A stretch of DNA of 52,649 nt from a bacterium (GCA_029557395.1 JAKQIK010000045.1:1-52649), one strand, 5' to 3'; shown: positions 25,713-41,710, counted from the stretch's first letter. Program-made: numbers and translations. Notes: a model not told the origin generated them from the sequence alone.

Positions 25713-26720
25713 TCAGGACGTCAGATTTGCTTTATTGATTTCAGTTTTAATCTCATCAAGTGTTAGCCGCCTGGCTTGTAGTTCTTTGATTTTTTCAACT
25801 GTCTTTAGGCTACTCTCATTAAACCATCTGTAGCCGCCGTCAGTAGTTTTAGCTACTTTTAATAGCCCCTCATTGGTCCAGAACCGTATCGTACTAGTTG
25901 GCGTATCGCTGACCCGAGCTAATTCTCCAATCTTAAGTAGACGCTCCTCTTTAACTCCCCTTGGCTTTTTATTACCAAGATATACATCAAGTGAGCTATC
26001 TACAGCTTTAATAACCAATGAGTAGAAGTCATTCAAGTCACCAGTCATATGGGCTTTTTCTAGAGCATTGATATAATCTTCCCTCTTATCATTTCCAATA
26101 ACGGTAATGGGATAATTGGCTTGCATAAGAAGTAAGTTCATAAGCAATCGTGCGGTTCGTCCATTACCATCTACAAAAGGGTGTATTCTAACTAGCTTAT
26201 AGTGAGCATCAGCAGCAACAATAACTGGATGCGTCTCACTCTTACTCTTTAGCCAAGTAAAAAATTCTTCCATTAACTCAGGTACTTTAAGTGGATCTGG
26301 TAATTCAACGTCAGAACCAGCTATCGCAACTGGTACGTTACGATACTTTCCAGCGTTTTCATCATCAATCTTTTGCAAAATGAGCTTGTGAATGTTCATT
26401 ACATCTTGCTTGGTGAGATCTTGCTGCTTAGTATTCGCAGCTAGATCTTTAACGTAATCAATTGCTTCGGCGTGGTTGGTAGCCTCTAAGTGTTCAGTTA
26501 ATGTTTTACCTTTAACCGTAACGCCCTTTTCTATTACAAGTGCAGTTTCACGACGATTGAGCGTGTTGCCCTCAATAGCATTTGAGTTATACGTCAGCTC
26601 AACCTTAAACCATTCACTCAGGTTTTTTAGATAGTCGGTAGATAATGGACGCAATTTTTGAAGTTGGTCCTTCTTATCTGTGAGCCTTTGAAGTGTTACT
26701 TGTAAGTTTGAAGTTGTCAT
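25713..26720 (-). CDS. Fic-domain protein fused to a C-terminal MerR-type HTH
   Basis: Fic motif HPFVDGNGRTARLL (HxFxDGNGRxxR). C-terminal KIGELARVSDTPTSTIRFWTNEGLL...GYRWF is MerR-like. Confidence 0.85.
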   Translation of the reverse strand: MTTSNLQVTLQRLTDKKDQLQKLRPLSTDYLKNLSEWFKVELTYNSNAIEGNTLNRRETALVIEKGVTVKGKTLTEHLEATNHAEAIDYVKDLAANTKQQDLTKQDVMNIHKLILQKIDDENAGKYRNVPVAIAGSDVELPDPLKVPELMEEFFTWLKSKSETHPVIVAADAHYKLVRIHPFVDGNGRTARLLMNLLLMQANYPITVIGNDKREDYINALEKAHMTGDLNDFYSLVIKAVDSSLDVYLGNKKPRGVKEERLLKIGELARVSDTPTSTIRFWTNEGLLKVAKTTDGGYRWFNESSLKTVEKIKELQARRLTLDEIKTEINKANLTS

Positions 26721-26786
26721 ACTTTATACCTTTACTTTAAACTTTAACTTTTAGTATATCACAAACTTAAAGTAGATCAACCCCCT

Positions 26787-27872
26787 CGTAATGACTCAAT
26801 ACCTTTGCAACATAGCCCTGGTTGGCGTTAGCCAACCAAAATGTGGCTGTTCTACACTGTAAGAGTACAAAATCTAAACAGGAGAACAGCCACATGAGCT
26901 ATTCTAACAACCCTTTACTACCAAAAGCGAGAGCCGAAGCGGTACGCCTCGTGGTCGAGCGTAACATACCCCCAGCAGTTGCCGCTCGCAAGAGCGGTAT
27001 CCACCGCACCACGCTGTGGCGCTGGCTACGGAAGTGGCATACACTCAACCAGAATGTCCAGCTCACCAACGACAACCGTCCAGGGCGGAACAATGCTGTC
27101 ACGGGTGTGAGTAGCTTCCGCTTGAGTGCCTGTGTCTGGAATATACCAACCAGGAGTAGCCGTCCCCGCTTCTTTGGGCGAGCAGTCTCAGTAGCGGTCG
27201 TAGACCGCATTCGGTACTACCGAAACAGGTACCAGCGTTGTGCGACCATTGTCCACGCCTACTGCCAGCGGGAGGGTACCGTCGTGTCCCTCAGCACGGT
27301 ACGACGGGTGCTGTACCGACTGGGGCTAGTGGTTCGCAAGAAGTGGCAACGCAAGTGGCGACCGCCACTGCCACGACCAGATGCAACCAAACCAGGTGAC
27401 CTGGTGCAGACCGACACCGTCCATCTGTACGACCACCGCACCAAACAACGGACATATTTGTACACTCTTGTTGACGTCTACAGCAGATGGGCGTACGCCG
27501 AGCACCACACCAGGCTGGGGCAAGACATTGCGGCGGATGTTATCCGCCGCAGCCAGGCCCATGCAGGGTTTCACTTTACGACCGTCCAAGCAGACAACGG
27601 CCCAGAGTTTGGCAGACACTTCGAGGAGTTGTTACAGGCACAGGGGGCAGTAGTACGTCACAGTAGGGTCAGGCGCCCCAATGACAATGCCCACATTGAA
27701 AGGTTTAACCGGACAGTCCAGGAAGAATGCACGGGCAGTAGCTGCCCGGTCGCTACCAATTTACAAGGCAAGGTACTAGCGTACCTTGCCTACTACAACC
27801 AAGAGCGGTTACACTTGAGTTTGCAGTGCAGAACACCGCTTGAGATGTTGCAAAGGTGTTGAACTAATTACG
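26787..27872 (+). mobile_element. intact IS481-family insertion sequence (1086 bp)
   Basis: Imperfect terminal inverted repeats: CGTAATGACTCAATACCTTTGCAAC (26787-26811) vs the reverse complement of GTTGCAAAGGTGTTGAACTAATTACG (27847-27872). 6-bp direct target duplication CCCCCT (26781-26786 and 27873-27878). Single DDE transposase ORF. Visibly much more GC-rich than its surroundings. Confidence 0.85.
26894..27862 (+). CDS. IS481-family DDE transposase (rve integrase core)
   Basis: N-terminal HTH (SGIHRTTLWRWLRKW) and DDE core (VQTDT..., VQADNGPEF, NDNAHIERFNRTVQEE). AGGAG Shine-Dalgarno 9 nt before ATG 26894. The stop lies inside the right inverted repeat. Confidence 0.88.
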   Translation: MSYSNNPLLPKARAEAVRLVVERNIPPAVAARKSGIHRTTLWRWLRKWHTLNQNVQLTNDNRPGRNNAVTGVSSFRLSACVWNIPTRSSRPRFFGRAVSVAVVDRIRYYRNRYQRCATIVHAYCQREGTVVSLSTVRRVLYRLGLVVRKKWQRKWRPPLPRPDATKPGDLVQTDTVHLYDHRTKQRTYLYTLVDVYSRWAYAEHHTRLGQDIAADVIRRSQAHAGFHFTTVQADNGPEFGRHFEELLQAQGAVVRHSRVRRPNDNAHIERFNRTVQEECTGSSCPVATNLQGKVLAYLAYYNQERLHLSLQCRTPLEMLQRC

Positions 27873-27950
27873 CCCCCTTCTGTTTAATAGCCGCTCTAGC
27901 TCTATTGAGGGGTCATTATAAAAAGACAAAACAATAAAGGAGGACCTGCT

Positions 27951-29528
27951 ATGAAGGTAGCAATATACTTACGAGTTTCAACACTCGACCAAGCAACAAA
28001 AAACAATCAGCGAGAAGGTTATTCTATCCCTGCCCAACGTGAAGCGTGCAGAAGAAAAGCTAAAGAGCTGGGTGCTACTCGCATAAGGGAGTATGCAGAT
28101 CGTGGCGAGTCAGCTCGTTCAGCATCCAGACCGGAACTACAGCGGTTATTACACGACTTATGTGATAAGAAACAAAATATCCAATGCGTTATCGTCCACA
28201 AAATAGACCGATTAGCTCGTAATCTTCACGATGATGTAATGATAGGCTTAGCTATTAAAAAGGCTGGGGCGACGCTTATCTCCGTAACCGAGAATATAGA
28301 CGAAACACCATCCGGTAGGTTGCTGCACGGCATAATGGCAACTATTGCTGAATTCTATAGCAGAAACTTAGCAGCTGAGGCGTTGAAAGGAGCAACAGAA
28401 AAAGCCAAGCGAGGAGGTACGCCCTTCCAAGCACCAATCGGGTACATAAATGTGACGGAGCGTGTTAACAGGCGCGAGGTTCATACGGTTGCCCTAGATC
28501 AATCAAGAGCGCCACTTATACGCTGGGCTTTCGAATGCTACGCAACGGGTGACTACAGTGAGTTAGAGTTATTAGACCAATTATCTAAACGTGGCTTGCG
28601 TACCAGGCTTCGTTCTCGGTCAAAGGTAGAGCCGATAAGCCACGGTGGTCTCAATAAACTTTTACAAAACCGCTACTACCTTGGCTATGTAACGTATTGC
28701 GGAATTGAGTACAAAGGAAATCATCAACCGCTAGTAACGCCCGCTGTATTTGCCGCCAGTCAAGCTATCCGTGAAAGTCGATATCGTTTGAGCCGAAAAA
28801 ATCGCAGCCACAACCACTACCTATCCAGGCTGTTGCTGTGCAGCCGGTGTAATAGGCACTTATGTTATATGGTCAGTAAACATAAGTATGAATACTATTC
28901 GTGTTTAAACCGTAAAAATCAACAGTGCAACCAGCCATACATACCGGCTCAGAAGATAGAACAAGAAGTTATCAACCAGCTTAAACTCCTAAACCTATCT
29001 GCTTCAGATCGCCAAAAGTTATCCGAGCAAATTGAAAACGAGCTTGGCAGTGAGAGAGCCTACGCTGAAACTGATACCAAAGCTCAAACTCAGCGAGTAT
29101 TGCGGCTTCAGGCAGAGAAGGAAAATTTACTCCAAACGTACTATGACAAAGTCATCTCTGCGGACCTATTCAAGAGTGAGCAGAAACGTATTGATAAAGA
29201 AATACGCCAAGCTCAGGGAGTGACTATAGAGGCAACAAGGCGATTAAAGATTATTGATGGACGTCAGGCTCGTGCTTTAAAAATGGTCAAAGAATTAGAT
29301 TTTTCCAAGGCTTATATCAATGCAGATCCAGCCATACGACGCCATTTTTGTAAGGCTCTGTTTGATAAGTTAGCTGTTAACGATGAGGTGATAATTCAAC
29401 GAAACGCTTATAGATATCCCCGCGAACATCACGTTACAATCACAAAAGTAATGTGGCAAAACCCTATAAACATCCATCATCTTACCAACGCCATACTAGC
29501 CATATCCCTAAAAAAGCGTAGTTCTTAA
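27951..29528 (+). CDS. large serine recombinase (SR1)
   Basis: Resolvase catalytic domain MKVAIYLRVSTLDQ, recombinase domain, Cys-rich zinc-ribbon region, and coiled coil. AAGGAGG Shine-Dalgarno. Confidence 0.88.
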   Translation: MKVAIYLRVSTLDQATKNNQREGYSIPAQREACRRKAKELGATRIREYADRGESARSASRPELQRLLHDLCDKKQNIQCVIVHKIDRLARNLHDDVMIGLAIKKAGATLISVTENIDETPSGRLLHGIMATIAEFYSRNLAAEALKGATEKAKRGGTPFQAPIGYINVTERVNRREVHTVALDQSRAPLIRWAFECYATGDYSELELLDQLSKRGLRTRLRSRSKVEPISHGGLNKLLQNRYYLGYVTYCGIEYKGNHQPLVTPAVFAASQAIRESRYRLSRKNRSHNHYLSRLLLCSRCNRHLCYMVSKHKYEYYSCLNRKNQQCNQPYIPAQKIEQEVINQLKLLNLSASDRQKLSEQIENELGSERAYAETDTKAQTQRVLRLQAEKENLLQTYYDKVISADLFKSEQKRIDKEIRQAQGVTIEATRRLKIIDGRQARALKMVKELDFSKAYINADPAIRRHFCKALFDKLAVNDEVIIQRNAYRYPREHHVTITKVMWQNPINIHHLTNAILAISLKKRSS

Positions 29529-29540
29529 CAAACCCAGAGG

Positions 29541-30887
29541 CTAGAGGGTTATGCTGTTGCATAGATTGAGGACTTTGGTATTGATGTCCTCACCTTCTAC
29601 TTTGTAGTCAGGTGTATTTTTATCTGCATCATTGACTACCCAATAATTACCAATCCCGAAATTATGTGTTGGCAACGAAAACACTGCATCTATTTTATTT
29701 TTTGTAAACATATTGACACTAACTCCTATAATTTCGCTGTGTTTACGCATTTCTTCGGTGATCCTGAAACACCTTTTAGCTACCCCGTCTTGATAGTACG
29801 TTAGCCCGAACGTTACCGGTAGACGCTTACGAACTTGATAGCGCCTGTCATCTTCGTAGCTTTCTACTAGCTTATCTACATAATCCTCGACTGAGCGGCG
29901 CGTTCTGTTGACCTTGTGTATGCCGTGCCTCCAACGAGACGGCATAGTCCAGTAAAGTTGCTCCTGGGCAAATTCAAAATCTTTGCGGCTAACTAACGCT
30001 TCGAAAGCATCCTCGCACCTAACCCACTCTTCTACGGGGTTTTTGCGTTGTCTTTGCTTTAGTCGACTCCAGGTTTTGTTATACAACTTAGTCCCCGTGT
30101 AGGTTTCATTACCCAGGACACGAACAACCTTTGACGCATCCCACTCCTTACCCGTGGCTGACACAACGGCATTTTCGTTTAATTGATTAGCGATGTCTTC
30201 GGGCGGAATGCCTCGCTTTACAAACATTGCGAAGATATCCTTTACTACTTGCTCTGAGCCATCATTCGCAGGCTCAAAAGTAACCCGTTGATTTGCTATA
30301 ACCTTGTGTTCGCCCTTTTTTAGTATGCCGACCCTCTTCTTATTTTCATCAAATAGCACGCGCACATACCCATAGGGCGCTGTACCACCAGCCGAAAATC
30401 CCTGCTCAGAAATTTTCATACTCCCGTGCCATACCTTATCGCTTAATTGCCTGCTATATTCAGCAGCCATATACCGACCGATTGATGTTTCAAGGCTAGA
30501 TAGCAATTTTTCCTCTTCCTTTGGGAAACCTCTGGAAATGTATATCACCTTTTTGTTTCTTTTCTTACACTGCATCTCCCAATAAGCAGCTTCGTCAGGG
30601 TCCTGAAAACGCCCCCACCTTGTAACATCTAAAACGAGTACATAGTCAAACTCCTGAGCATCTGGATTTAAGACCCAATCTTCAAACAGTCGTTCAAAAC
30701 CTGGACGTGCAGCTGATAAACCACTTTTACCTTCATCAGCCTCTTCGTGGATTATCTCAATGCCATACTTTGCCGCAAACCCATTAGCCTGGTCTCGCTG
30801 GATAGGCACAGAGTTTTCTTGCTTATCTTCTGCTGAGTGACGGTAATATGCCACCGCTTTCTTCTTTATACCCTCCGTGCCAAACAT
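29541..30887 (-). CDS. large serine recombinase (SR2)
   Basis: Resolvase-type N-terminus (AVAYYRHSAEDKQENSVPIQ) followed by a recombinase domain. Convergent with SR1, with stop codons 12 bp apart. Confidence 0.8.
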   Translation of the reverse strand: MFGTEGIKKKAVAYYRHSAEDKQENSVPIQRDQANGFAAKYGIEIIHEEADEGKSGLSAARPGFERLFEDWVLNPDAQEFDYVLVLDVTRWGRFQDPDEAAYWEMQCKKRNKKVIYISRGFPKEEEKLLSSLETSIGRYMAAEYSRQLSDKVWHGSMKISEQGFSAGGTAPYGYVRVLFDENKKRVGILKKGEHKVIANQRVTFEPANDGSEQVVKDIFAMFVKRGIPPEDIANQLNENAVVSATGKEWDASKVVRVLGNETYTGTKLYNKTWSRLKQRQRKNPVEEWVRCEDAFEALVSRKDFEFAQEQLYWTMPSRWRHGIHKVNRTRRSVEDYVDKLVESYEDDRRYQVRKRLPVTFGLTYYQDGVAKRCFRITEEMRKHSEIIGVSVNMFTKNKIDAVFSLPTHNFGIGNYWVVNDADKNTPDYKVEGEDINTKVLNLCNSITL

Positions 30888-30894
30888 TTTTTAC

Positions 30895-31764
30895 CTATAG
30901 CGCCTCATTTAGTAGTTTTTTAAGTTGATCAAGAAAAGCCTTCTCTTGCGAACTAAACGCAACACCTTCGGCTCTCTTCTGACTAATGCCCTTGATAAGT
31001 TGCTCAATGTGTAAAGAGAAACCTGATTGCAGGGTTCTCTGTTCAAGCTCGTGGACCGTCATATCAGGGTCTGCTAAGTATCGAGCCAGCTCCTCTTCAT
31101 TCGCCGTTGCCCGCAAGAATATACTGCCGAGCTTGCGTAGCTCCTTGGCATTTTTAATAACCTTATGCTGGATGCGATTAAAAAGGTTAATGATTATGTC
31201 GTCTACTTCCACATTACGGATTTTGCGTAGTTTCGGTTTAAGCCTTACAAATTCAATACGGTAACTTTCACTTAAATCGTAACGCTCCATTAATTCAATG
31301 TAATCCATTTTTTGTTTACGCAGTTGGAGCGAATTAGCAACAACTGCCTCTGTTATACCTAAGTGATCTGCAAGCTGACGGTTGCTTGAAAAGCCCATTT
31401 CAGCCTTAATCCTTTCTAAGGCTTCAGATCGCTCCATTGGCTTCCAGGAACGGCGATTGTTTTGGATTTCATACCTACGTGTTTCTAGTTCAGCATTTGA
31501 TAATTTGGGATACACCCGGCAAGGAACCTGCTCATATCCAAGCTTCTGAGCGCAAATATAACGCCTGTGACCGTCAATAATGATGTAACGACCATCTTCT
31601 AACTCACTAACTGAGATAGGGTTTTCTATGCCGTACTGCTCAATAGATAGCAATAACCTATTGGTGTCACCCTCTGTACCGAAATCACGACGGGGCTGAT
31701 TTACATCTCTTTGAATTTTACCGACTGGAATTTCAACAAAGGTATAACCGTACTTGTGGACCAT
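30895..31764 (-). CDS. ParB/Srx-like N-terminal domain protein with HTH
   Basis: IIIDGHRRYICAQKLG (ParB GxRR box-like) and HTH SNRQLADHLGITEAVV. Lies directly upstream of SR2 on the same strand. Confidence 0.7.
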   Translation of the reverse strand: MVHKYGYTFVEIPVGKIQRDVNQPRRDFGTEGDTNRLLLSIEQYGIENPISVSELEDGRYIIIDGHRRYICAQKLGYEQVPCRVYPKLSNAELETRRYEIQNNRRSWKPMERSEALERIKAEMGFSSNRQLADHLGITEAVVANSLQLRKQKMDYIELMERYDLSESYRIEFVRLKPKLRKIRNVEVDDIIINLFNRIQHKVIKNAKELRKLGSIFLRATANEEELARYLADPDMTVHELEQRTLQSGFSLHIEQLIKGISQKRAEGVAFSSQEKAFLDQLKKLLNEAL

Positions 31765-31948
31765 TTAATAATCACCTTTCTCCCACCTTTGCCGTTTTCT
31801 CCGTGAAAAGACAAAATATACTCGTCCTAAGATACCATAGGTGTTTGCAATTAGTCAAAGTTCATTGTAAAGTAAGCTAAAGCAGTTTGGTTTTAAGTAG
31901 TACGAGTGCAGTTACTTACCCAAGTAAAAAATGTGTATGATAAGTAGA

Positions 31949-32920
31949 TTATGGCTCGTTAATACTTTGAATAATCCAATCAAAGCGTCGGATTTGCTTT
32001 ATCGATTGGTGATGAACCATCAATGCCTTATAGCTTGCTACGTTACGCACATTTAAGTTTCGTTTCATTTTATTCTGTGCGTCCTTATCAAGTCTTCGTC
32101 CTGACGACCAAAGATCAACACCCAGATACGACACCCCTTTACGCACAGGATTTATGAGGTTTACATTAGGATTAACATCCAAATTAAGTTCGTACGTCAG
32201 AAAGTCTTCTGCCTTTTTACGTGCATTTTCTAGTTTTACCTTATCATCCATAAAGCATAACCAATCGTCACCATAACGAAGGTACGCATTCGGCTTTATT
32301 CTGTGCGTGATATAACGATCAAATTCGTTTAGGTAGATGTTTGCTAGGATTTGACTAGTGAGATTGCCGATTGGGATACCTCTGTTATTATCAAAGCTAC
32401 GATAACTTTCTATAGTCTCGCTCAATAGCCACAAGGCTGTCGGGTCACTTACCCGTCGTCTCAGTAATCGTAACAGCGTACTCTTATCAACTGAGTCAAA
32501 TAACTTTGTTACGTCCCCGCGCCAAAGCCACCCGTCTTTATATTGCCGCATAAATTTTTGCGCTCTATCTATTGCACCGTGCAAACCTTTATTCTGCCTG
32601 CACGACCAGGCATCATAAATGAACGTTTTATCCCAGATTGTAACTAAATAATCGTAAAGCAATCGATGCACAACTCTATCGCGAACAGACGCCACAGCAA
32701 TGTCTCGTCGCTTGTTGTCATTAACGATCATATGTGAATAAGGACCGTGTTTGTAAGTGCCAGTTTGGAGTTCAGTAGCCAATTTGAGGATATTATCAAG
32801 TAACTCGTATTCGAACTCTGTAGTAGCACGACTTGGTTTTTTGCCCCTACGAAAAGCTACATACGAACGCCATACGTTTGCTAAACTGATATCTATGGAA
32901 GAATTACCCGTCATCACCAT
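31949..32920 (-). CDS. diversity-generating retroelement reverse transcriptase
   Basis: 323 aa. RT motifs RDRVVHRLL, IPIGNLTSQ (the DGR-specific [I/L]GxxxSQ signature) and YLRYGDDW (YxDD). No maturase or endonuclease domains. Confidence 0.93.
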   Translation of the reverse strand: MVMTGNSSIDISLANVWRSYVAFRRGKKPSRATTEFEYELLDNILKLATELQTGTYKHGPYSHMIVNDNKRRDIAVASVRDRVVHRLLYDYLVTIWDKTFIYDAWSCRQNKGLHGAIDRAQKFMRQYKDGWLWRGDVTKLFDSVDKSTLLRLLRRRVSDPTALWLLSETIESYRSFDNNRGIPIGNLTSQILANIYLNEFDRYITHRIKPNAYLRYGDDWLCFMDDKVKLENARKKAEDFLTYELNLDVNPNVNLINPVRKGVSYLGVDLWSSGRRLDKDAQNKMKRNLNVRNVASYKALMVHHQSIKQIRRFDWIIQSINEP

Positions 32921-33233
32921 TGCCTTTGAAATTTACAAAAAATTACTGGAATTAAACACCAAGTTGGACAAGAAGTACCGCTATTCGCTCGGTGAACAAG
33001 CAGCAAAGTGCTGGTCAGATACCCTAGAGCAGCTACTATTAGCAAAACACGCTCCAAAACCAATGAAAGCAAGCTACCTCCTTAGGGCAAATGCTCTTGC
33101 CGAGATGACTTCGTTGCATCTTAGAGCCATCCTTGAATTAAAGCTCACCAACGAAACGAACGTACTTAAAGTCCAAGCACGCCTGAGCGAAGCACGCCGA
33201 ATGATCGGCGGCTGGCTCAAAAGCGTGCATTAG
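32895..33233 (+). CDS. avd: Avd-like four-helix-bundle accessory protein (opposite strand to RT/TR)
   Basis: 112 aa, helical, and basic at the C-terminus (EARRMIGGWLKSVH); resembles Avd / 23S-IVS four-helix-bundle proteins. ATG 32895 was chosen because the upstream part of the ORF-track ORF overlaps the RT gene on the opposite strand. Confidence 0.7.
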   Translation: MEELPVITIAFEIYKKLLELNTKLDKKYRYSLGEQAAKCWSDTLEQLLLAKHAPKPMKASYLLRANALAEMTSLHLRAILELKLTNETNVLKVQARLSEARRMIGGWLKSVH

Positions 33234-33251
33234 ACCAACACTGATACACCA

Positions 33252-33358
33252 CACCGCGAGCCGAGCATCATTCTCATTCTCGGCATTCGAGTTGTTCAGG
33301 TTCGGCTTACCATCGTTGTTCACGTAGGAGTTCGGCACGTTCTGCCACCTGTCGACCG
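33252..33358 (-). repeat. DGR template repeat (TR), sense on the minus strand
   Basis: 107-bp gap-free match to 33661-33767, with 23 of 24 mismatches at TR adenines. In the VR frame it reads as the AAY-rich peptide VDRWQNVPNSYVNNDGKPNLNNSNAENENDARLAV. Confidence 0.93.
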
Positions 33359-33654
33359 TTAATTCTCCAAGATATCCTGTTCCTTATAATCCGCAGAAAA
33401 TAAGGACCTCTCTTCTTTCAGCATCATTTATGACGCTATCTTTGGAGATCCGTGGGGTGTAAAAGGTTCTTGATGTGCTTACTGCTACAAAAAGATCCGC
33501 TTTCGCTCGGAAAGTCTTTTCACGCTAGATGTAAGCAGCAATCCACTCGGGGCACCGATAGGTACTAGCCTTTGGACTACTTACCCCGAACCTATTGTTC
33601 GTAGGTAGTTAGATAAAAGAAAAAGAAGAAAAGAAAGGGCTAAAATTAAAGGTT

Positions 33655-35634
33655 TTACCCCACCGCGAGCCGAGCACCAAACCCATACCCGGCAACCGAG
33701 CCGTCCAGGCCCGGCTCACCACCGCCGTCCACGTAGGAGCCCGGCACACCCTGCCACCCGTCGACCGCTTGCGGCTCTAAATCAAAGTGTCTAATGTAGG
33801 TTTTATCGAAAGCACTACTGTCGTTGAGTTTATCCCCCCCGGCACGCAAGGTGTACCAGTAAGTTACTGCATCAAGCAGGCTCGGTACTCTCGCTGATAG
33901 GTTTGGTCGCTGAGCTTGACGTTCACGCAGCAAGCGTACTTGTGTTTCTACAGGCTTATTACTGATCTCACCGTCATAACGGCTTGGTATAAGGCTCAAT
34001 CGCACCGCTGATCCACCGCTGTTACCTGACCACTCTTGGTCACTATAGCGACCGCGGCGATACATTTCATCGTACACAAATGTTGCGTATGGCTGATCTT
34101 TGCCAAAGTTTTCAGCTAGCGCAACTATCTGGGCTTCACTAGCCTCAACGTTAGGCGTAGCCACCAGGTTAAAACGAGCACCGTTTTCAATCAGCTGCTC
34201 AACCAAGTAATCGTAAACCCCGTTCTCCTGCCACTCTTTATCACGCATTGCGAAAAGATGTTCAAGTTCGCTCGCGGAAATAGCTGCCTCACCCCTACGA
34301 AACAGCCTTTGCTTACCACTCAACTGATCTACTACCGTCCTGTATGCCACGTATGCACTCTGTACCTGTTCTCGAATAGCTTCAGGCAACACGCGGGCTA
34401 GCTCAGGTTTATCGCGATCACCACGCATTTGACGAATTTCATTAACACGCGGATCACGTTCGTAGCCAAAACCTTGAATTTCGCGGTCCAGCTCGTACAG
34501 GAAGCGTAGTTCCTCCGCACTTAGGTCCGCGTCAGGATTAGCTGTAATTCTTTTTTCAATCGCAGTTAAACGCTTCATATCCTCTGCTTTGCGAATATAC
34601 TCTGCGCCACCAGGCAAGTCTTTAAGCTGTTCAGCCGTAATATCTGCCATTTCTGGTTCAAGTTCCTGCGCAGCATTTACGCCACGAACCTCGGCAACCT
34701 CGCCCTGCTCCATTCGTATAGCCACCCGTGGAACGGTGTCTTTGCCGTCTTCATCGCGTGTGTAGTACACAAAAAAGTCGCCACCCCTCAACTGCATAGT
34801 TGCTGTGCTTTCACCAGCCGTACACCAACCCGTTCCGTGTCCTTGTAGTGAACCGGAAAGTCTACGGGCTGTACGTGGGTCGTCAGTCTGATTGAACTTA
34901 GTCCACGAACCTCTTGTGTCTTTTCTTAACTCTGGACTATCAGGAGTAACTTCCAATACAGCGTGAGCATAGAGTTTACCGAAATTACCACTTTTAAGGA
35001 GCTTTTGAAGTTCGGCATCGTTAGCCCCGCCATTGACCTGCTCACCCTGTATCCGTGATTTATTTAGCACATCATAAACGTAAGCTAACGCTTCACGGTT
35101 CAGTTCAGGGTAAGGCGCTGTCGTGCCACGACTACGCTTCTGAAACTCGTTTTTTTCTTTATCGAATGTCCCGAGCTTAGTAACTGATGCCCAAGTGTAA
35201 CTCTTAAACCAATCAGGGTATCCACCGTCGTCACCGCCGAGATATTCAACCCATTTACCAAGTCCAGCACGTTGATCAGCCTGTACCGCCTCAACCATTT
35301 GATGACGCATTTCAGAGGTTATTTGAATATCGCCGTGACCCTGTTCGCGAGCTATTCGGCGTTGCAATTCAAAATAACCTTCGGGTACATCCTCAGCATT
35401 AATGACGTGAGCATCTATCTGACGGTCTATGCTAGCCTGGTCGCCAGTTAAAATGCCGTCATTTACGTACTCACGGTTAGCCAAAAATCCCAGATGAGCC
35501 GAGATTTTATCAACAGGCTCATTAGGAATAGACTCGCCACCCTGACGTAAATAGCCCACTACCGCCTCAACTTCATCAGATGTGTGCATCTGTGGGTTAC
35601 GATCGTGTAGAAATGAGCTTCCTGGACTTTGCAT
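33655..35634 (-). CDS. DGR target (variable) protein, 659 aa, VR at the extreme C-terminus
   Basis: Long ORF whose last 36 codons before Gly-stop are the VR. No N-terminal signal peptide or TM segment is evident. The N-terminal ~620 aa match no family I recognise. Confidence 0.85.
   Translation of the reverse strand: MQSPGSSFLHDRNPQMHTSDEVEAVVGYLRQGGESIPNEPVDKISAHLGFLANREYVNDGILTGDQASIDRQIDAHVINAEDVPEGYFELQRRIAREQGHGDIQITSEMRHQMVEAVQADQRAGLGKWVEYLGGDDGGYPDWFKSYTWASVTKLGTFDKEKNEFQKRSRGTTAPYPELNREALAYVYDVLNKSRIQGEQVNGGANDAELQKLLKSGNFGKLYAHAVLEVTPDSPELRKDTRGSWTKFNQTDDPRTARRLSGSLQGHGTGWCTAGESTATMQLRGGDFFVYYTRDEDGKDTVPRVAIRMEQGEVAEVRGVNAAQELEPEMADITAEQLKDLPGGAEYIRKAEDMKRLTAIEKRITANPDADLSAEELRFLYELDREIQGFGYERDPRVNEIRQMRGDRDKPELARVLPEAIREQVQSAYVAYRTVVDQLSGKQRLFRRGEAAISASELEHLFAMRDKEWQENGVYDYLVEQLIENGARFNLVATPNVEASEAQIVALAENFGKDQPYATFVYDEMYRRGRYSDQEWSGNSGGSAVRLSLIPSRYDGEISNKPVETQVRLLRERQAQRPNLSARVPSLLDAVTYWYTLRAGGDKLNDSSAFDKTYIRHFDLEPQAVDGWQGVPGSYVDGGGEPGLDGSVAGYGFGARLAVG
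33661..33767 (-). repeat. DGR variable repeat (VR)
   Basis: Encodes VDGWQGVPGSYVDGGGEPGLDGSVAGYGFGARLAV. Its 3' end (sense GCTCGGCTCGCGGTG) is identical to TR and adenine-free, after which the flanks diverge (IMH-like). Confidence 0.93.
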
Positions 35635-35687: not shown

Positions 35688-35716
35688 ATACTATCATATT
35701 TTAAGGTGCGTGTCAA
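35688..35716 (-). promoter_or_regulatory. sigma70-like promoter for the DGR target gene
   Basis: Minus strand TTGACA (35716-35711), 17-nt spacer, TAGTAT (35693-35688) with an upstream TG. Located ~55 nt before ATG 35634. Confidence 0.45.
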
Positions 35717-35783
35717 TCTCTCGCTCTCTGTTGGGCAAGCTGATAATCTAAACTTATGAAAAATGCTTTATTGTAAGCGTCGA

Positions 35784-36347
35784 CTACTGGAGGTTTACCT
35801 TTACACCACCTGAGAAGGAACTATCGTGTAGTTCAGCAGTGGTAATCTTTGCACCAGCAGGTACATCAAACAAAATGTCACCTTTTACGCTGTTACCTGG
35901 ATTTATTTGGTCAAACCAAGTACTACCCGAATTGCCTGATGATGCATAGATGGTAGCTGTATCATCGGCAGCAAACTGTTGACCCTCAGCGTTTAATAGC
36001 TTTTGATCGCTTGATAAGAGGCTTTGAGCCTCATCACCTATGTTCTTAATGCTAAGGCTAAGACGACAAAACTCACCCTGTGCTTTTTCGTTTAAGTACT
36101 GGTCTCCTACTGATTTCTCACCACATTTAATGCTGGCTACAGTAAATTCAAACTTGCCATCACGTGCCGGTTCGCCAATTTTAGCCGTTGTTGCTTTTTC
36201 TTCGGTCTTCTCAGACGCATTATTATTTCCACTGTTGCTCTGGTTTGAGGTGGTGCTAGAACCGCCACCCGCTGCACCTATAATGCCCCCAACTACTAAC
36301 AACGCTAGAATTGCTGTTATTATCTTGTGTTTTTTGAACCAATTCAC
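35784..36347 (-). CDS. DUF4352-like membrane-anchored extracellular Ig-like protein
   Basis: N-terminal TM, Ser/Asn/Gly-rich linker, then KIGEPARDGKFEFTV...FCRLSLSIKNIGDEAQ, which is typical of DUF4352. Confidence 0.65.
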   Translation of the reverse strand: MNWFKKHKIITAILALLVVGGIIGAAGGGSSTTSNQSNSGNNNASEKTEEKATTAKIGEPARDGKFEFTVASIKCGEKSVGDQYLNEKAQGEFCRLSLSIKNIGDEAQSLLSSDQKLLNAEGQQFAADDTATIYASSGNSGSTWFDQINPGNSVKGDILFDVPAGAKITTAELHDSSFSGGVKVNLQ

Positions 36348-36455
36348 TTATAAACTCCTTGTTTAAGTTATCTCTATAAAAATTTATCATATATTATCAA
36401 CAAAATAAACAGTTAGTTTATGTAACTATCTGTTTATTATTTCTACGCTTAGTGT

Positions 36456-36683
36456 ATGACAGGTACACGTGATCAAAAGTTAATGAAAGCATTTGGTAGA
36501 AGGGTTGCTGAGGTTCGCAAGAGCCGTGGAGTTACGCAACAAGAACTTGCAGAACGTATCAATATGAGCGTAGTTGCAATAGCCTATATAGAGACCGGTA
36601 AACGATGGGCGCGGCTTAGTACACTTAGCAAAATTGCAAAAACACTAAAAGTGAACATAAGCGACCTTTTTCAGGGACTTTAA
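36456..36683 (+). CDS. XRE-family HTH transcriptional regulator
   Basis: 75 aa. RKSRGVTQQELAERINMSVVAIAYIETGKR matches the Cro/C1-type HTH. Confidence 0.85.
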   Translation: MTGTRDQKLMKAFGRRVAEVRKSRGVTQQELAERINMSVVAIAYIETGKRWARLSTLSKIAKTLKVNISDLFQGL

Positions 36684-36919
36684 AAACTAATTTTATATGG
36701 ATTTTAAAAGTCATAGCGGGGGCTACCCCTGTTAATTCTCAGAAAAAAGACTCCGCTGTATCAATGCCGAATTTTTTCGGGAGCAAAATGACCAAGCATT
36801 TTTTTGCCTAGTGATATATTGCGCTAGCGTTACTTTATCGATGAGGCAACCAGTAGATGTACTAGTTTTTGATATAATTATAAGTAGGTACAAAGATTAT
36901 ATGAAAATGAGGCTTAGCA

Positions 36920-38377
36920 GTGTCAAACGAGGGGAAAAATGAGAATGTAAATCAAGGTCAGACAAAATATGATCTTGATTTAGATGCCCCCACAGAAAAG
37001 AAAACTGAAGTAGAGCCTAAAACTGTTGAGCTAACTGTTGTTAAGCGAGCGCGTGAACAAGCAACAAAACAGCAAAAAGACGTCCAGGAAACTCTGAATG
37101 AACGCCTGAGAACTAGTGGAGCTTTTGCAGCCGTAGTTAAAGTTAATTCGGTTCAGGGTAGCCTTGCAAAAGCACTTGGCTTTCAAAGTAACATAAATCA
37201 GGTCTTTAAGAGTGTTGGCGCGGCATTTCAAGCTACGCAACCCGCTCTTCAACTCGCTCAACAAATGGCAGAGGCTCACAAGAGTATTACTAGGACAATG
37301 CAGCCGATGCTTGAAACAATGCGACGGCTTGGTGAGAAGATCCAAAAAATGTTCGAGGCACTGAGAAAATCTCTTCCCTCCTTCTCTAGCATCTTCAAAA
37401 AAATTGGGTCAGGGATTACCAGCCGTATCGCCCCATTAGTACAGACAGTTATCTCAAAGTTTGCCAATTTTAAACCGCCGCCAATCACCAACTTCCTAAA
37501 ACAATGCGTCGAGCAGATCAGCAAATTCACACGTACAGTTTTTGGTCATATTGACTTCGGCAAGATATTCCAGCCTCTTGCTGACTTTTTTAAGCTACTC
37601 TCAAAAAGCAACTTCTATCTAGTCGTAAAAGCGTCTGAAGGCGACTCCATAGCGTCATATCAATTAGCTAAGATGTGGTGGAAGCTTGGACGTGAATATT
37701 ATAGGCTTGAACGATTACAGGGTCGTGAGCCAACCGAGGATGAGTTCGAGCATATTATTCAAACTACTTGCCTAGAGATTTTAAGAGAAAATGAACACAA
37801 AAGTATGGGTTGGGGATTAAAAGCAGCTCAGACGGTCTTTTATAGTCTGGTGCATCACTTAATGGCACAGTACATCCTCATTAACGACAATAAAGCTGCA
37901 TCCGAATGGGTTGAATTTAACGTCTATATTGATGAGAAGAATAACAAAGAATATCTGTTCCTGGGTACTATTGCTCGGCAAGTTGGCATATCTGACCAGA
38001 CACTGCGAAACTGGATTAGGTCCGGTGAATTAGAAGTCATTAAAACTTCGTTCTACTCGAAACTACGCAGCTCAAAAGCAACTGCATTTCTTATTCCATA
38101 TCGAGAAGGAATAGTTACTGAATTGAATAAAATAAAAGCTGAGAAACAGATGGCACAACGCCATCAGAGAGATGATCTTTATACCGTATCTCAAGTTGCT
38201 AATGTTATAGGAGTTAGCACCAAAACACTTAAGCGATGGGATGCAAGAGGCATTTTAGTACCTAGGCGCATAAAAACAATCCGTTATTATACTACTGAGC
38301 AAGTAAAGACCATCCCTACCATCCTGGAACAAAATAATAGCCCGAGAACTATTGAACTGAGACAACGCTTCGCGTAG
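36920..38377 (+). CDS. 485-aa protein: coiled-coil N-terminal half and two MerR/excisionase-type HTH motifs in the C-terminal half
   Basis: GTG start with GAGG upstream. HTH-like segments TIARQVGISDQTLRNWIRSGEL and YTVSQVANVIGVSTKTLKRWDARGIL. Confidence 0.6.
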   Translation: MSNEGKNENVNQGQTKYDLDLDAPTEKKTEVEPKTVELTVVKRAREQATKQQKDVQETLNERLRTSGAFAAVVKVNSVQGSLAKALGFQSNINQVFKSVGAAFQATQPALQLAQQMAEAHKSITRTMQPMLETMRRLGEKIQKMFEALRKSLPSFSSIFKKIGSGITSRIAPLVQTVISKFANFKPPPITNFLKQCVEQISKFTRTVFGHIDFGKIFQPLADFFKLLSKSNFYLVVKASEGDSIASYQLAKMWWKLGREYYRLERLQGREPTEDEFEHIIQTTCLEILRENEHKSMGWGLKAAQTVFYSLVHHLMAQYILINDNKAASEWVEFNVYIDEKNNKEYLFLGTIARQVGISDQTLRNWIRSGELEVIKTSFYSKLRSSKATAFLIPYREGIVTELNKIKAEKQMAQRHQRDDLYTVSQVANVIGVSTKTLKRWDARGILVPRRIKTIRYYTTEQVKTIPTILEQNNSPRTIELRQRFA

Positions 38378-38398
38378 TTAACTTTTTTATTACCACAT

Positions 38399-38422
38399 AA
38401 GCCCGGAGCACCGGGCTTTTTA
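38399..38422 (+). terminator. rho-independent terminator
   Basis: AAGCCCGG-AGCA-CCGGGCTT hairpin followed by TTTTT, 21 nt after the stop of the 485-aa gene. Confidence 0.75.
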
Positions 38423-38495
38423 AGTTACCCCTGTTAATCCCAATGTCCTGGGCTTTTTTGGCTTATTACAAGTGAAAACACTATGGAGAAATTAA

Positions 38496-38738
38496 ATGAA
38501 CGATGACGATCAATACTTTGAGACAACAGACCTTGGGCTGAGTACCACCATTGTAACACTTGGCTTTCGCCTTCACTCCCTAGACAGAAGTAACCCAAGC
38601 AGGGTGAAGTTTGTCTTTCGCAGAGAAGACAAGCTAGAAGATATCGTAAGAGCCTACTGGCAGAAGGAATTATCCGTTGAACCACTCGGCTACTTTAACA
38701 ACGTCAAGTTAATGAAGAACAGGATTTATTCGAGGTAA
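38496..38738 (+). CDS. small hypothetical protein (DUF5659-like)
   Basis: 80-aa ORF just upstream of the P-loop gene, pattern FETTDLGLSTTIVTLGF...VKFVF. The family assignment is from memory only. Confidence 0.45.
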   Translation: MNDDDQYFETTDLGLSTTIVTLGFRLHSLDRSNPSRVKFVFRREDKLEDIVRAYWQKELSVEPLGYFNNVKLMKNRIYSR

Positions 38739-38743
38739 CGACT

Positions 38744-40120
38744 ATGACAATGAAGCAAAATGATAATGAAAATGAAGAACAACAAAAAACTGTAGAGACG
38801 GTTAACCTTGATAGCGCACCACGTATTCTAGCGGTCCCAACACCAGATAAAACCGTCTCGTTCAGTGAATGGCGAGGCGTTATAAATGACAACTTCCCCG
38901 ATCTGCTATTTGCTGCTGAAATTGGCTTGTCGATTATCGCACAGATACTCATAAAAGATGTTACAAATCCCTTTGCTCTGGTGCTAGTTGATGTCCCCTC
39001 GGCAGGTAAAACCATCACTATCAACTTTTTTTCGGAGATCGAGGGGCTTACCTACGCAACAGATAAATTTACGCCTGCGTCGTTTGTTTCAAATGCTGCC
39101 AATGTCAAAAAAGAAAAGCTAAGAGAAGTCGATTTACTGCCACGACTACAATACAAACTGTTCCTTATCAGAGACTTGGCGACACTATTTTCAAAGCGTG
39201 ACGACGACTTAAATGAGTGTCTAGGAATTTTAACTCGCGTGCTTGACGGCGAAGGCTTCAACACCGATAGCGGCATTCACGGACAGCGTCAATATGTTGG
39301 CGAGTATCTCTTTATGGTTCTGGCAGCTTCTACCCCCATTCCACCTCGGGTATGGAAAATGATGGGCAACCTTGGGTCAAGGCTGTTCTTCCTTAATATG
39401 AACTCCAAAGACAAGTCTGAGGACGAACTTGCCGAACAGCTTGGCTCTACAGCCTATAAGACCAAAGAAAAAGCCTGTAAAACCGTTACTAAACAGCTAC
39501 TTGAAACGCTCTGGTCTAAATACCCAGAGGGTCTGGATTGGGATAACACCCAGGATGAGCGCGATCTGAAGCTTATCATTGCGCGTTGCGCTCGTCTCCT
39601 AGCTTGTCTGCGAGGTGTTATTAACCTTTGGAAAGATCGGGGTGAAGATGGCACAGAGTACAGCTATACTACGCCAACCGTTGAAAAGCCGGACCGTATT
39701 AACCAACTTTTTTACAACCTATGCCGAGGACACGCTTTGGTTAACGGAAGAACACAGCTAACAAGAGATGATGTGCGCCTAGCAATCGAGCTAGCCATAG
39801 ATAGCGCTCCTACAGTCAGAACTCGCCTTTTCCGGGCATTACTCGAACTAGGCGGTGAAATCTGCACTACGGCAGTAGAGGCGATCCTTAACTGCTCTAA
39901 GCCGACTGCATTAAAAGAAATGGAGTCACTCAAAATACTTGGTCTTTGCACTATCAGCCAAGAGAGCCAAGGACGAGTTGGCGAACCTGAAAAGATTATG
40001 AAATTGGACAGTAGTTTTGATTGGTTTCTGAGTGATGAATGTAAGGCAATCCGCAACTCAGATGCTCCAACAACCAATAAAGAAAATCTGACGTTGTGGA
40101 AGGAGGAAGCTATGACCTGA
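38744..40120 (+). CDS. P-loop NTPase with C-terminal winged-helix-like region (possible replication/mobilisation initiator)
   Basis: Walker A VDVPSAGKT, Walker B-like KLFLIRD. The C-terminal segment TTAVEAILNCSKPTALKEMESLKILGL looks like a wHTH. Confidence 0.55.
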   Translation: MTMKQNDNENEEQQKTVETVNLDSAPRILAVPTPDKTVSFSEWRGVINDNFPDLLFAAEIGLSIIAQILIKDVTNPFALVLVDVPSAGKTITINFFSEIEGLTYATDKFTPASFVSNAANVKKEKLREVDLLPRLQYKLFLIRDLATLFSKRDDDLNECLGILTRVLDGEGFNTDSGIHGQRQYVGEYLFMVLAASTPIPPRVWKMMGNLGSRLFFLNMNSKDKSEDELAEQLGSTAYKTKEKACKTVTKQLLETLWSKYPEGLDWDNTQDERDLKLIIARCARLLACLRGVINLWKDRGEDGTEYSYTTPTVEKPDRINQLFYNLCRGHALVNGRTQLTRDDVRLAIELAIDSAPTVRTRLFRALLELGGEICTTAVEAILNCSKPTALKEMESLKILGLCTISQESQGRVGEPEKIMKLDSSFDWFLSDECKAIRNSDAPTTNKENLTLWKEEAMT

Positions 40121-40163
40121 TAAGCCAATCCCTAAACAAGCTATATAGATTAAATGAGGAGAA

Positions 40164-40373
40164 ATGATTATGGATACTAAATGTAAAGGAATAGATACTT
40201 ACGGTGATTTTTGTGAAGCACTACATAAAGCAGTTTTCGGTGACAAATGCGTATTCTGCCCAAAGAAACGTTATAGCAAGAAAACTGTCTGTAAAACGTG
40301 CTATGACAGCTGTCCGAATAAAAAGCCTGTCTACGACGAAGTTGCCGTTCGCGTCAAAATTCGGAGGAGTTAA
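40164..40373 (+). CDS. small Cys-rich (zinc-finger-like) protein
   Basis: 69 aa with CVFC...CKTC...C pattern. Confidence 0.45.
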   Translation: MIMDTKCKGIDTYGDFCEALHKAVFGDKCVFCPKKRYSKKTVCKTCYDSCPNKKPVYDEVAVRVKIRRS

Positions 40374-40376
40374 GTT

Positions 40377-40751
40377 ATGAGCCACGACGCAATAGATCAG
40401 GCTATAGATATCTTAGAAAAGAACAGCGAAGCTTCAGATAGAAACCAAGGTCAACGGCGCGGGAAATACTATGACGACGAGAAGGATCAGCCACAACACT
40501 TCTCTTGGGTTCATATAGACGTAGAAGCCCCTAACTGCTGTACGGATACTTCAAGCTGCATTATGTACGGTGATGCCGAGGAAATGCAGCAACAGTTCTT
40601 AGACTATGCACGTCATATGGTTACACCGGATCTGCTACAGATGATAAGGGATAGAAAACTTGTGCATATCACGCTTCGCATTGGACCGCGATCATTAAGT
40701 GGTGTTGACCTGAATGATGACTACGGGATCGAGGTGAAATATGAGCAATAA
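40377..40751 (+). CDS. hypothetical protein
   Basis: 124-aa ORF tightly spaced with its neighbours (starts 4 nt after the previous stop and overlaps the next gene by 11 nt). Confidence 0.45.
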   Translation: MSHDAIDQAIDILEKNSEASDRNQGQRRGKYYDDEKDQPQHFSWVHIDVEAPNCCTDTSSCIMYGDAEEMQQQFLDYARHMVTPDLLQMIRDRKLVHITLRIGPRSLSGVDLNDDYGIEVKYEQ

Positions 40752-41388
40752 CAAACCGAGTAAAAAGAACGGCAAGAAATTAGCTAAAGAGTTCACTCCC
40801 GATGAAGTTAAGCGGATGCTCAAAAATGTTGAAATTGAGATTGACCCCGCTGCCCTACTGAAAAAATCAGCTGATATGTGGAACGAGTACGAAGCAAGTA
40901 GTCCAGCTAAGAAAAAGGCATTGGTTGACGATCTTAACAAGAAGCTAGAGCAAGCTTCAGCTATAGTCACACTGGAAAACCACTACCTTTTAGCCGAGAC
41001 ACTTGATAGCAAAAAGTACAGAACCTTCTTAATCGAAGTTACCGATCAGCTCATAGCAGAATATGAATGTAAGACCACTTCAGAGAAGATGTTGGCGCAA
41101 ACAGCCGGTTGGGCGTATTGCCGGATGATCGAGTATGGTTACAAGCTCAATTCGATTACTAGAATAGACTTTCTAAGTAGCGAGAAGAATGGTTACTACT
41201 CTGTGCTGAGCAAGGAAGTAGACAGATGCGCCAGGCAGTACTTATCGGCTATTAATACCCTTAAGCACTTCAAGCAACCAGCATTAAAGGTGTCTTTTAA
41301 AGCTAACAATGCCTTCGTAGCCCAGAACCAACAAATCAACTCAAAGACTAAAGATAAGTCCGAGGCACAAAACAATGTCGGGCAATGA
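40741..41388 (+). CDS. hypothetical protein (basic N-terminus)
   Basis: 215-aa ORF that overlaps its neighbours at both ends in the manner of translational coupling. Confidence 0.5.
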   Translation: MSNNKPSKKNGKKLAKEFTPDEVKRMLKNVEIEIDPAALLKKSADMWNEYEASSPAKKKALVDDLNKKLEQASAIVTLENHYLLAETLDSKKYRTFLIEVTDQLIAEYECKTTSEKMLAQTAGWAYCRMIEYGYKLNSITRIDFLSSEKNGYYSVLSKEVDRCARQYLSAINTLKHFKQPALKVSFKANNAFVAQNQQINSKTKDKSEAQNNVGQ

Positions 41389-41710
41389 TTACGGAAACTC
41401 TCCAGCAAGTGACACCGTCAACTCAATTAGCGTTGATGAGGTTGTAAAGTCGCTTCGCACACAGTTTGAAGAAAGTCTTATCCAGGAGCCGGTTTACATC
41501 GGTGATATGCAAGTTAACTTAGTAACAACTTCTACTGGACACGGCGGACAACGGTACTGGTTTATTTGCCCCGCCTGTAAGACCCGTGTTGCAAAACTGT
41601 ACGTACAGGTGTCACTAATAGCCTGTAGGCATTGTCACGGTCTCAAGTATCGATCCAGCCGCTATAAGGGTATGGTCGAAGAACAAATTTTTAAGAAGGA
41701 GCAGTCGTAG
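41375..41710 (+). CDS. zinc-ribbon protein
   Basis: 111 aa, CPAC...CRHC four-Cys ribbon. Confidence 0.5.
   Translation: MSGNDYGNSPASDTVNSISVDEVVKSLRTQFEESLIQEPVYIGDMQVNLVTTSTGHGGQRYWFICPACKTRVAKLYVQVSLIACRHCHGLKYRSSRYKGMVEEQIFKKEQS

Follow-up and report, generated by a model that had tools for sequence, protein, structure and literature searches.

The window analyzed here, a stretch of bacterial DNA of 52,649 nt (GCA_029557395.1 JAKQIK010000045.1:1-52649), contains between positions 31949 and 35634 a reverse transcriptase (RT) gene, a small avd-like gene, a template region (TR) as well as a protein-coding gene that ends in a variable region (VR). Taken together, these features very probably represent a functional chromosomal diversity-generating retroelement (DGR) of the type found in the ultra-small bacteria of the candidate phyla radiation (CPR), here in a member of the Saccharimonadales (Saccharibacteria), for which we also propose a mechanism and an RNA model. 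The parts are arranged in the order target-VR, structured spacer, TR, inverted avd and RT, which is the architecture called B3.

The RT gene (31949-32920, minus strand) encodes 323 amino acids and matches RVT_1 (3e-16) and, far more strongly, the phage DGR-RT family phrog_1423 (5.7e-82). Among solved structures its product is closest to chain 8ub7_A (3e-34), whereas the values for retron-type and group II RTs go no further than 4e-17. From its length of 328 aa and its place among the entries 8ub7-8ube, we take 8ub7_A to be the bRT of the Bordetella phage, solved by cryo-EM in the RT-Avd-RNA series. In the alignment with 8ub7_A, GIPIGNLTSQILANIY is matched with GIPIGSLTSQLFANVY and YGDD with YMDD, corresponding to the GIPIGxLTSQ and YxDD motifs. 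The first-pass annotation, made from the sequence alone, had described a 323-aa RT carrying IPIGNLTSQ and YLRYGDDW, and the translated open reading frame (ORF) contains both. DGR-type RTs are recognized by I/LGxxxSQ in motif 4, by YxDD, and by a length of ~320-400 aa without a maturase or endonuclease domain; by sequence comparison, the RT has this length and both motifs, with bRT as its nearest solved relative. Judging from start-codon conservation among relatives, the ATG at 32914 is the likelier start.

The putative avd gene (32898-33233, plus strand) encodes 111 aa and runs antisense to TR, VR and RT. Its product matches bAvd PF22296 (1e-5), NF033474 DivGenRetAVD (5.9e-9) and phrog_3206 (1e-7), and a gene 60-98% identical to it, likewise inverted and in the corresponding place, is present in 10 genome loci and in 80 loci from metagenomes. 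Position and conservation over these 90 loci would fit an Avd. A four-helix-bundle Avd-like gene between RT and TR had been noted before, and this placement is correct, but the gene is one residue shorter than the 112 aa then given, and its inversion relative to RT, TR and VR had been missed. The starts of avd and RT are divergent and overlap by 17-23 nt (32898-32920 in the window, where ATGACGGGTAATTCTTCCAT is read on both strands). This overlap is kept in all relatives, and synonymous variation in avd is lowered at codons 1-15 (0.41 vs ~0.6). The arrangement implies that each of the two genes has its promoter within its partner, and that any transcript reading through from TR to RT is antisense to the whole avd mRNA.

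A reverse-strand avd between TR and RT, together with relatives that come from Saccharibacteria or other Patescibacteria metagenome-assembled genomes (MAGs), identifies the layout as B3. According to Wu et al. 2018 (PMC5758913), 90% of the DGRs in CPR genomes have the B3 'TR-(avd)-RT' order, which is thus their hallmark, and a Patescibacteria-restricted DGR clade (clade 2 'Patescibacteria') has been described by Roux et al. 2021 (PMC8144416). Since this layout has already been published, the element is a further member of a described kind.

We re-aligned TR (33252-33358) and VR (33661-33767), both read on the minus strand, and found 107 nt without gaps and with 24 mismatches; an independent repeat finder returned the same pair as 33248-33358 and 33657-33767. 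On the sense strand, 23 of the 24 mismatches fall on TR adenines (19 A>G and 4 A>T) and the remaining one is C>T, so that seven of the 30 TR adenines are kept in VR and 76 of the 77 other positions are identical. The probability of placing at least 23 of 24 mismatches on 30 adenines among 107 positions is 3e-16 (hypergeometric). The alignment thus agrees with that given in the first-pass annotation, as do the translations of the two repeats, which differ at 16 residues. VR was also said there to form the last 36 codons before a Gly-stop; its place at the end of a 659-aa ORF (33655-35634, minus strand) holds, but the number of full codons is 35. Each of the 30 TR adenines occupies the first or second position of its codon; together they fall in 19 of the 35 codons, 10 of which are AAY, and a stop codon can be reached by mutation from one TR codon only (AAG). 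The GC-rich 3' end of VR (33661-33675) is identical to TR 33252-33266: the adenine-free GCTCGGCTCGCGGTG is shared by both copies, beyond which the flanks diverge into TGGTGTATC beside TR and GGGTAAAAC beside VR. As had been proposed, this resembles a pair of initiation of mutagenic homing sites (IMH/IMH*). A polypyrimidine tract lies 3' of the target stop codon.

Variation among close relatives follows the same adenine pattern. A contig from a metagenome, Ga0116143_10114342 (L081), aligns without gaps to window positions 32265-33802 (1538 nt) at 98.05% identity. Of the 30 differences between the two, 18 fall within VR (107 nt) and 12 outside it (1431 nt), which is a 20-fold enrichment in VR; TR and the spacer are identical, and the sequence outside VR differs by 0.8%. 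Seventeen of the 18 VR differences lie opposite TR adenines, and the 18th is the window's lone non-adenine mismatch, at which L081 retains the TR base. Population variation confined to TR adenines had been proposed earlier as a test of the element, and this comparison shows it at all but that one position. Because the two VRs differ at 17 adenine sites while TR is identical, homing took place after the two strains split. Among 15 target homologues at least 87% identical, variation is seen in every one of the 19 codons whose first or second position corresponds to a TR adenine (mean of 5 residues, 1.96 bits), and 15 of the 16 adenine-free VR codons are invariant (0.04 bits), with the remaining protein averaging 0.15 bits. 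These patterns in the sequences support the view that the DGR has homed recently.

The identical order of target-VR, ~300-nt spacer, TR, inverted avd and RT was found in 10 genome loci, and wherever TR is retained among them, it forms an adenine-specific pair with VR. Scanning metagenomes with Avd as the seed added 80 further loci, ~55 of them with complete adenine-specific pairs, so that a cassette with such pairs recurs in ~65 related loci overall. More distant CPR loci, in which RT is 34-38% identical, likewise combine a homologue of the target's N-terminal domain with a DGR. A distant CPR locus, L045:7700-11500, contains two TRs (8218 and 11324) and two VRs (7732 and 10838) with 19 adenine-specific mismatches each, and may be either a duplicated cassette or a multi-target DGR. 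We also observed three DGR 'fossils' (L009:7974-8440, L004:7730-7872 and L007:2253-2393), which retain a full-length target, a VR-like tail and the complete 5' RNA (E values of 1e-25 to 1e-27 with the covariance model R1 described below), and from which TR, avd and RT are gone. In L009, unrelated MscL-like and MsrB-like genes start exactly where TR would be expected to start.

RNA structure of the VR-TR spacer

VR and TR are separated by 300 nt of non-coding DNA. When the VR-to-RT interval of 11 loci was aligned, this spacer showed near-invariant sequence blocks, and RNAalifold applied to 34 non-redundant sequences predicted four helices, P1-P4, all on the minus strand. P1 joins 33582-33587 with 33549-33554 and P2 joins 33531-33537 with 33476-33482; P3 (33432-33435 with 33422-33425) and P4 (33382-33405, with a conserved UGCG-type loop) are hairpins just 5' of TR that were also assessed by pair counts. 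In these helices 92.9% of cells are paired, compared with 32-48% when the partners are slid by 1-3 columns, and compensatory double changes occur in 22 of the 25 pairs. The covariation score is 0.67 against 0.09-0.15 in the slid controls, and none of 500 column shuffles reached the observed values.

The 5' domain of the spacer RNA (33450-33591, minus strand), delimited by RNAalifold, pair counts and the covariance model R1, closes with an invariant motif that is placed between P2 and P3. This motif, AAGAACCUUUUACACCCCACG (33451-33471, minus strand), has a near-invariant CCCCACG core and a variable 5' part that covaries with the 3' flank of TR. R1, which was built on the 5' domain, matches the window at 33450-33591 with E = 5e-31 and gives a single match in each of 14 related loci; all 15 strong matches among 58 sources adjoin the target gene, immediately behind its stop codon. 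Applied to distant CPR DGR loci, R1 gave nothing significant except in L145 (E = 1e-3), and the breadth of this RNA beyond the Saccharimonadales family is therefore unproven. Rfam gave no relevant match in 32800-33800 at E values up to 10, RT-associated motifs included, and at the gathering threshold it detected nothing but three tRNAs in the whole window.

The variable arm of the motif is complementary to the last bases of TR and the next 15 nt, and for the majority of related loci the duplex energies lie between about -12 and -20 kcal/mol. Its predicted partner, GUGUGGUGUAUCAGUGUU (33237-33254, minus strand), comprises the TR 3' end and flank and lies between TR and the avd stop codon. When arms were combined with cognate and non-cognate TR flanks, the energies were -9.9 and -7.0 kcal/mol, respectively (permutation p = 5e-5). 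We also observed that the CCCCAC motif with its arm is complementary to the VR 3' flank (33653-33664, GGUGGGGUAAAA, minus strand), and RNAalifold pairs both when the VR end is included. This second pairing may represent another helix that the RNA can form or a contact between RNA and target, or it may merely follow from the similarity of IMH and IMH*.

The interval antisense to avd was considered as the main RNA scaffold and rejected. Synonymous-site diversity of avd is 0.55-0.70 in the middle of the gene and mildly lower at the 5' end, where it overlaps the RT start, and at the 3' end, so that avd synonymous sites are not unusually conserved; given the lack of strong synonymous constraint, this interval is unlikely to be a conserved RNA scaffold.

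Many relatives (including L008, L096, L097 and L013; alignment columns 46-66) have an extended -10-like TGnTAnAAT ~10 nt upstream of P1, and its sequence suggests a dedicated promoter for the TR RNA in those relatives. The subgroup to which the window belongs has instead an 11-nt insertion, ACUACCUACGA (~33590-33620), which can pair with the P1 loop GUAAGUAGU.

The diversified target protein

The target gene (33655-35634, minus strand) encodes 659 aa, comprising an N-terminal domain (N-domain; residues 1-~410, with the invariant HGTGWCTAGESTA), a helical linker and the C-terminal VR domain. A promoter-like site, TTGACA-17-TAGTAT with a TG, lies upstream at 35688-35716 (minus strand) as a consensus match only. 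The protein has 1078 detectable homologues, and the family comprises at least 2289 clusters at 50% identity. Those homologues with names are hypothetical proteins of Saccharibacteria or other Patescibacteria. Among one-genome-per-species contigs, full-length relatives occur in Saccharimonadales-type MAGs only; the N-terminal 400 residues are widespread over many CPR phyla, joined to different C-termini.

Searches of the target against Pfam, NCBIfam, PHROGs and PADLOC gave no match, and neither the target nor eight of its homologues matched any Pfam model even at E = 10, including the PcfJ model PF14284. No FGE-sulfatase or DUF1566 match was found in Pfam, a PDB profile search with the target gave none, and tblastn with the N-domain detected nothing in 50,697 phage or 72,556 plasmid records. 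The maximum 19-aa hydropathy is 0.74, with no transmembrane segment and no signal-like N-terminus, and because of this lack the protein is probably soluble and cytoplasmic, unless it is exported by an unconventional route.

AlphaFold2 modelled the full-length target with a pLDDT of 78.6, the N-domain with 90.4 and the C-terminal domain with >90. Neither the full-length model nor that of the N-domain matched a PDB fold with E <0.7; a GNAT/MYST acetyltransferase fold, which recurred among the matches at TM-scores of 0.3-0.37 and E >0.8, was dismissed as noise. For the VR domain, modelling leaves a C-type lectin (CLec) fold plausible but unproven. The best viral fold matches of the target were 'PcfJ-like' proteins of BFVD (Foldseek E values of 0.025-0.26, probability up to 0.77), which are not significant. 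A target category 'g' with a 'PcfJ-like protein' motif has been described among CPR DGRs (Wu et al. 2018, PMC5758913). The likeness of the present target to that category lies in these fold matches and has no counterpart in a sequence match to the Pfam PcfJ model, so that a distantly PcfJ-like or polyvalent-protein-like N-domain is only a lead. We know of no function assigned to PcfJ-like domains. The invariant core of the target (TGWCTAG...GDFYVYY, residues ~240-395) is 30-41% identical to a segment of phage proteins of ~3000 aa, encoded by the IMG/VR ORFs L163:33-8996, L165:294-9194 and L172:15-9023, which have an LPD38 'large polyvalent protein' domain at the end and no other Pfam domain.

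Proposed mechanism and alternative explanations

The element shares with the DGR of Bordetella phage BPP-1 (mtd-avd-TR-brt), which is the mechanistic paradigm, a bRT-homologous RT, an Avd-like protein and a TR/VR pair of ~110 nt with adenine-only differences, as well as a VR at the target C-terminus, an adenine-free GC-rich IMH-like end and an AAY-rich TR. Unlike BPP-1, it has an inverted avd placed between TR and RT and no inverted repeat following the IMH-like end; moreover, it is chromosomal in a CPR bacterium and diversifies what is probably a soluble cellular protein rather than a tail fibre. Comparison with the B3 DGRs of the CPR sets (PMC5758913, PMC8144416) revealed the same gene order, inverted avd and host phylum and nothing contradictory, and the targets of those DGRs, like the present one, are mostly without annotated domains.

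The Bordetella DGR RNA requires 20 nt upstream and 140 nt downstream of TR, and its downstream spacer, Sp, provides the primer, a duplex with an upstream segment, and RT- and Avd-binding stem-loops; a template:primer duplex and a cPRT-stop duplex are among the BPP-1 RNA elements (bioRxiv 10.1101/2023.10.23.563531). As in the BPP-1 RNA and the RT-10 motif (PMC5737381), mutually pairing segments bracket TR in the present model, together with conserved stem-loops and an invariant single-stranded motif. However, whereas BPP-1 has its 140-nt Sp RNA (the Rfam RT-10 region) 3' of TR, the 300-nt structured spacer of the present element is 5' of TR; most of the conserved structure is upstream, and the downstream partner spans only ~18 nt. 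The spacer RNA has no sequence or covariance-model similarity to the Rfam RT motifs. We found no mention of it, or of its pairing with the TR 3' flank, in the CPR DGR literature covered, which did not include Paul et al. 2017 (Nat Microbiol). The spacer RNA in front of TR is the only feature of the element that seems to be undescribed.

Following established DGR biology, the TR-containing RNA would be reverse-transcribed by an RT-Avd complex with misincorporation opposite adenines, and the cDNA would then replace VR, halting at the adenine-free IMH-like end. Homing would recode as many as 19 codons in the target's C-terminal tip, giving ~4e17 possible proteins, with the scaffold residues staying fixed. 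We propose that P1-P4 form a conserved scaffold 5' of TR and that the CCCCACG motif and its covarying arm pair across the 3' boundary of TR. TR would be looped out, and only ~20 nt would be required 3' of it, so that the TR-RT interval would be free for the inverted avd. If the TR:Sp template-primer duplex of BPP-1 is taken as a guide, the motif:flank helix may determine where priming takes place, and the cDNA would be expected to start in the GCUCGCGGUG segment. We infer that the CCCCACG helix could be the counterpart of the Bordetella duplexes that bracket TR, with the scaffold moved 5'. A tentative extension of this idea is that CPR B3 DGRs in general use a rearranged RNA, in which the entire scaffold for protein binding and priming sits 5' of the template and CCCCACG, with its coevolving arm, clamps IMH*, as a permuted form of the Bordetella avd-TR-Sp order. 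Pairing of the motif with the VR 3' flank (IMH) might have an additional role in target-site choice. More speculatively, the target could serve an epibiotic bacterium as a cytoplasmic PcfJ-like sensor or effector with a link to the type IV pilus locus nearby.

Several observations count against one part or another of this interpretation. The Avd matches are under the curated cutoff in both models that have one (Pfam and NCBIfam), and a PDB search gave no sequence match between the candidate Avd and solved bAvd. The repeat search found no GC-rich inverted repeat directly after the IMH-like end beside VR, although such a repeat downstream of IMH is present in only 34% of DGRs (PMC5758913). Scanning the spacer of the window itself for sigma-70-like promoters gave no convincing one for the TR RNA. 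Matches of the VR domain to C-type lectins are weak (6xfq_B and 1egi_A; E ~5-6, TMt 0.41-0.45). The long-range helix is supported by energy and by the permutation test, not by a clean column-by-column alignment, and the gapless column alignment gave 12.5 vs 11.0 pairs, a difference blurred by one-nucleotide bulges and anchor errors. Moreover, the motif arm also covaries, more weakly, with the VR 3' flank (p = 0.001), and since it covaries with both flanks its pairing partner in vivo is ambiguous. The priming role of the helix is pure analogy. The lone non-adenine VR mismatch, at 33748, is a point mutation later than the last homing event, which means that some time has elapsed since then, and sequence comparison is what suggests activity in this very genome.

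That mutation is what would be expected of a decayed or frozen DGR, in which VR was diversified in the past and homing has since ceased, and the three fossil relatives without TR, avd and RT, as well as the strong G bias of the window's VR (19 of 23 changes being A>G), agree with such a history. However, the RT is full length with all catalytic motifs, TR, the spacer and avd are intact, and TR is identical in two strains whose VRs differ at 17 adenine sites, which makes a frozen element very unlikely in our view. It is harder still to believe that the RT belongs to another system (a group II intron, a retron or a DRT/UG system) and that TR and VR are an ordinary diverged duplication, because this would leave both the adenine specificity and the adjacent Avd unexplained. 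The group II intron RT model TIGR04416 does match at 5e-40, but its 137.7 bits fall short of the cutoff of 300, and the 323 aa include neither a maturase nor an endonuclease domain. Many PADLOC RT models also match, such as UG17 at 1.8e-31; these matches are generic, since PADLOC holds no DGR model. In addition, Rfam finds no intron or retron RNA, and bRT is the nearest solved relative by 17 orders of magnitude. The DGR reading of the first-pass annotation is therefore borne out by the DGR-type RT, the adenine-specific pair at the 3' end of an ORF, the IMH/IMH*-like end and the recent diversification, with an Avd that is weak but consistent.

We also considered whether the spacer is separate from the DGR RNA, as a 3'-UTR element, terminator or regulator of the target gene or as a small RNA in its own right. 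It comes immediately behind the target stop codon and persists in fossils that have lost TR, avd and RT, its motif pairs with the VR 3' flank too, and the TGnTAnAAT upstream of P1 in many relatives is compatible with an independent transcript. On balance we regard this as rather unlikely, given that the motif arm covaries best with the sequence immediately 3' of TR, that all 15 strong R1 matches in the 58 sources adjoin the target gene, and that the spacer ends ~25 nt before TR without a terminator-like hairpin and U-tract; the fossils are perhaps just recent deletions. A question of a different kind is whether a prophage or integrative element carries both the DGR and its target, which would make them a tropism switch of the phage type. 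Next to RT lie genes for large serine recombinases at 27951-29528 and 29541-30887, for a ParB-like protein (30895-31764) and for an rve transposase (26822-27862), and the window has a third serine recombinase at 42072-43748. Furthermore, an IMG/VR contig (L161/L162, IMGVR_UViG_3300033402_000781) carries the cassette with target, avd and RT identities of 62%, 68% and 45%, followed after RT by a serine recombinase 69% identical to that at 27951-29528, so that the linkage between DGR and recombinase recurs across distant relatives. This is, however, the only one of 2.9 million viral contigs to contain the cassette, and the N-domain is without match in the phage and plasmid records searched. No phage structural genes were recognized near the cassette, the cassettes of L001 and L006 have none of the window's neighbouring genes, and homologues of the target without a DGR (L019, L024 and L015) lie between ychF and pilMNO, as the target does in the window. 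We accordingly see little likelihood in the cargo explanation.

The preferred reading, a functional chromosomal B3-type DGR, places the element as a CPR DGR with a target possibly of the PcfJ-like category and not as a new class. It does not overturn current understanding: the element class, its architecture and the abundance of DGRs in CPR genomes have all been published, and the class and its abundance were already stated as known in the first-pass annotation. The layout is complete, as was also stated there, but the completeness that was singled out as a notable point is ordinary for the class. The present analysis adds direct evidence that the element was active recently, shows how large and how conserved the family of the target is, and brings in a 5' structured RNA, apparently undescribed, with its predicted helix at the TR boundary.

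To our knowledge, DGRs are the only natural system of targeted protein hypermutation known in prokaryotes, and no DGR from CPR bacteria, which are the richest DGR reservoir, has so far been studied mechanistically. Dozens of alignable relatives reveal here a conserved RNA architecture unlike the Bordetella model, and P1-P4 with the CCCCACG:flank helix offer testable constructs for RT-Avd recruitment and priming in the presence of an inverted avd. The recurrent DGR target ranks among the most widespread CPR protein families that are uncharacterized, and is probably soluble and without a signal peptide, which bears on what epibionts must recognize.

Genomic surroundings

Two mobile or accessory blocks, at 25400-31800 and 35700-43750, bracket the DGR. 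The first contains, in addition to the rve transposase, the two recombinases and the ParB-like gene, a gene for a Fic-domain protein fused to a MerR helix-turn-helix (HTH) domain (25713-26720, minus strand), which matches the PADLOC candidate defence families PDC-S04 (3e-36) and SoFic (3e-32). On the opposite, target side of the cassette are genes for a DUF4352 protein, which is a membrane protein, for HTH and MerR-like proteins and for several proteins without assignment, followed by the third recombinase and by ychF (43717-44814). The type IV pilus genes pilM/N/O (19998-22386), together with an unannotated 791-aa ORF, form a region (19998-25022, minus strand) that adjoins the cassette region.

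The genes ychF and pilMNO, which bracket an 18-kb region in the window, also bracket the DGR-less target homologues of L019, L024 and L015. In L019 and L024 both mobile blocks are absent, and the order is directly ychF, target homologue, pilMNO. The target-family gene is syntenic with the pilus cluster in several Patescibacteria, and L002, a 95%-related genome, is collinear with the window. We conclude that the target locus is chromosomal, beside a type IV pilus cluster, with mobile DNA inserted on both sides. The mobile context emphasized in the first-pass annotation is thus supported only in part: the cassette has serine recombinases, an insertion sequence and a ParB-like gene on its flanks, and one of these recombinases is found again beside a 62%-identical cassette, but the synteny of the DGR-less homologues means that the target is not clearly mobile cargo.

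At some distance from the cassette, three tRNA genes, Asp-GTC, Thr-CGT and Arg-CCT, lie at 4874-7190 on the minus strand, and these are the sole Rfam or ARAGORN matches in the window.

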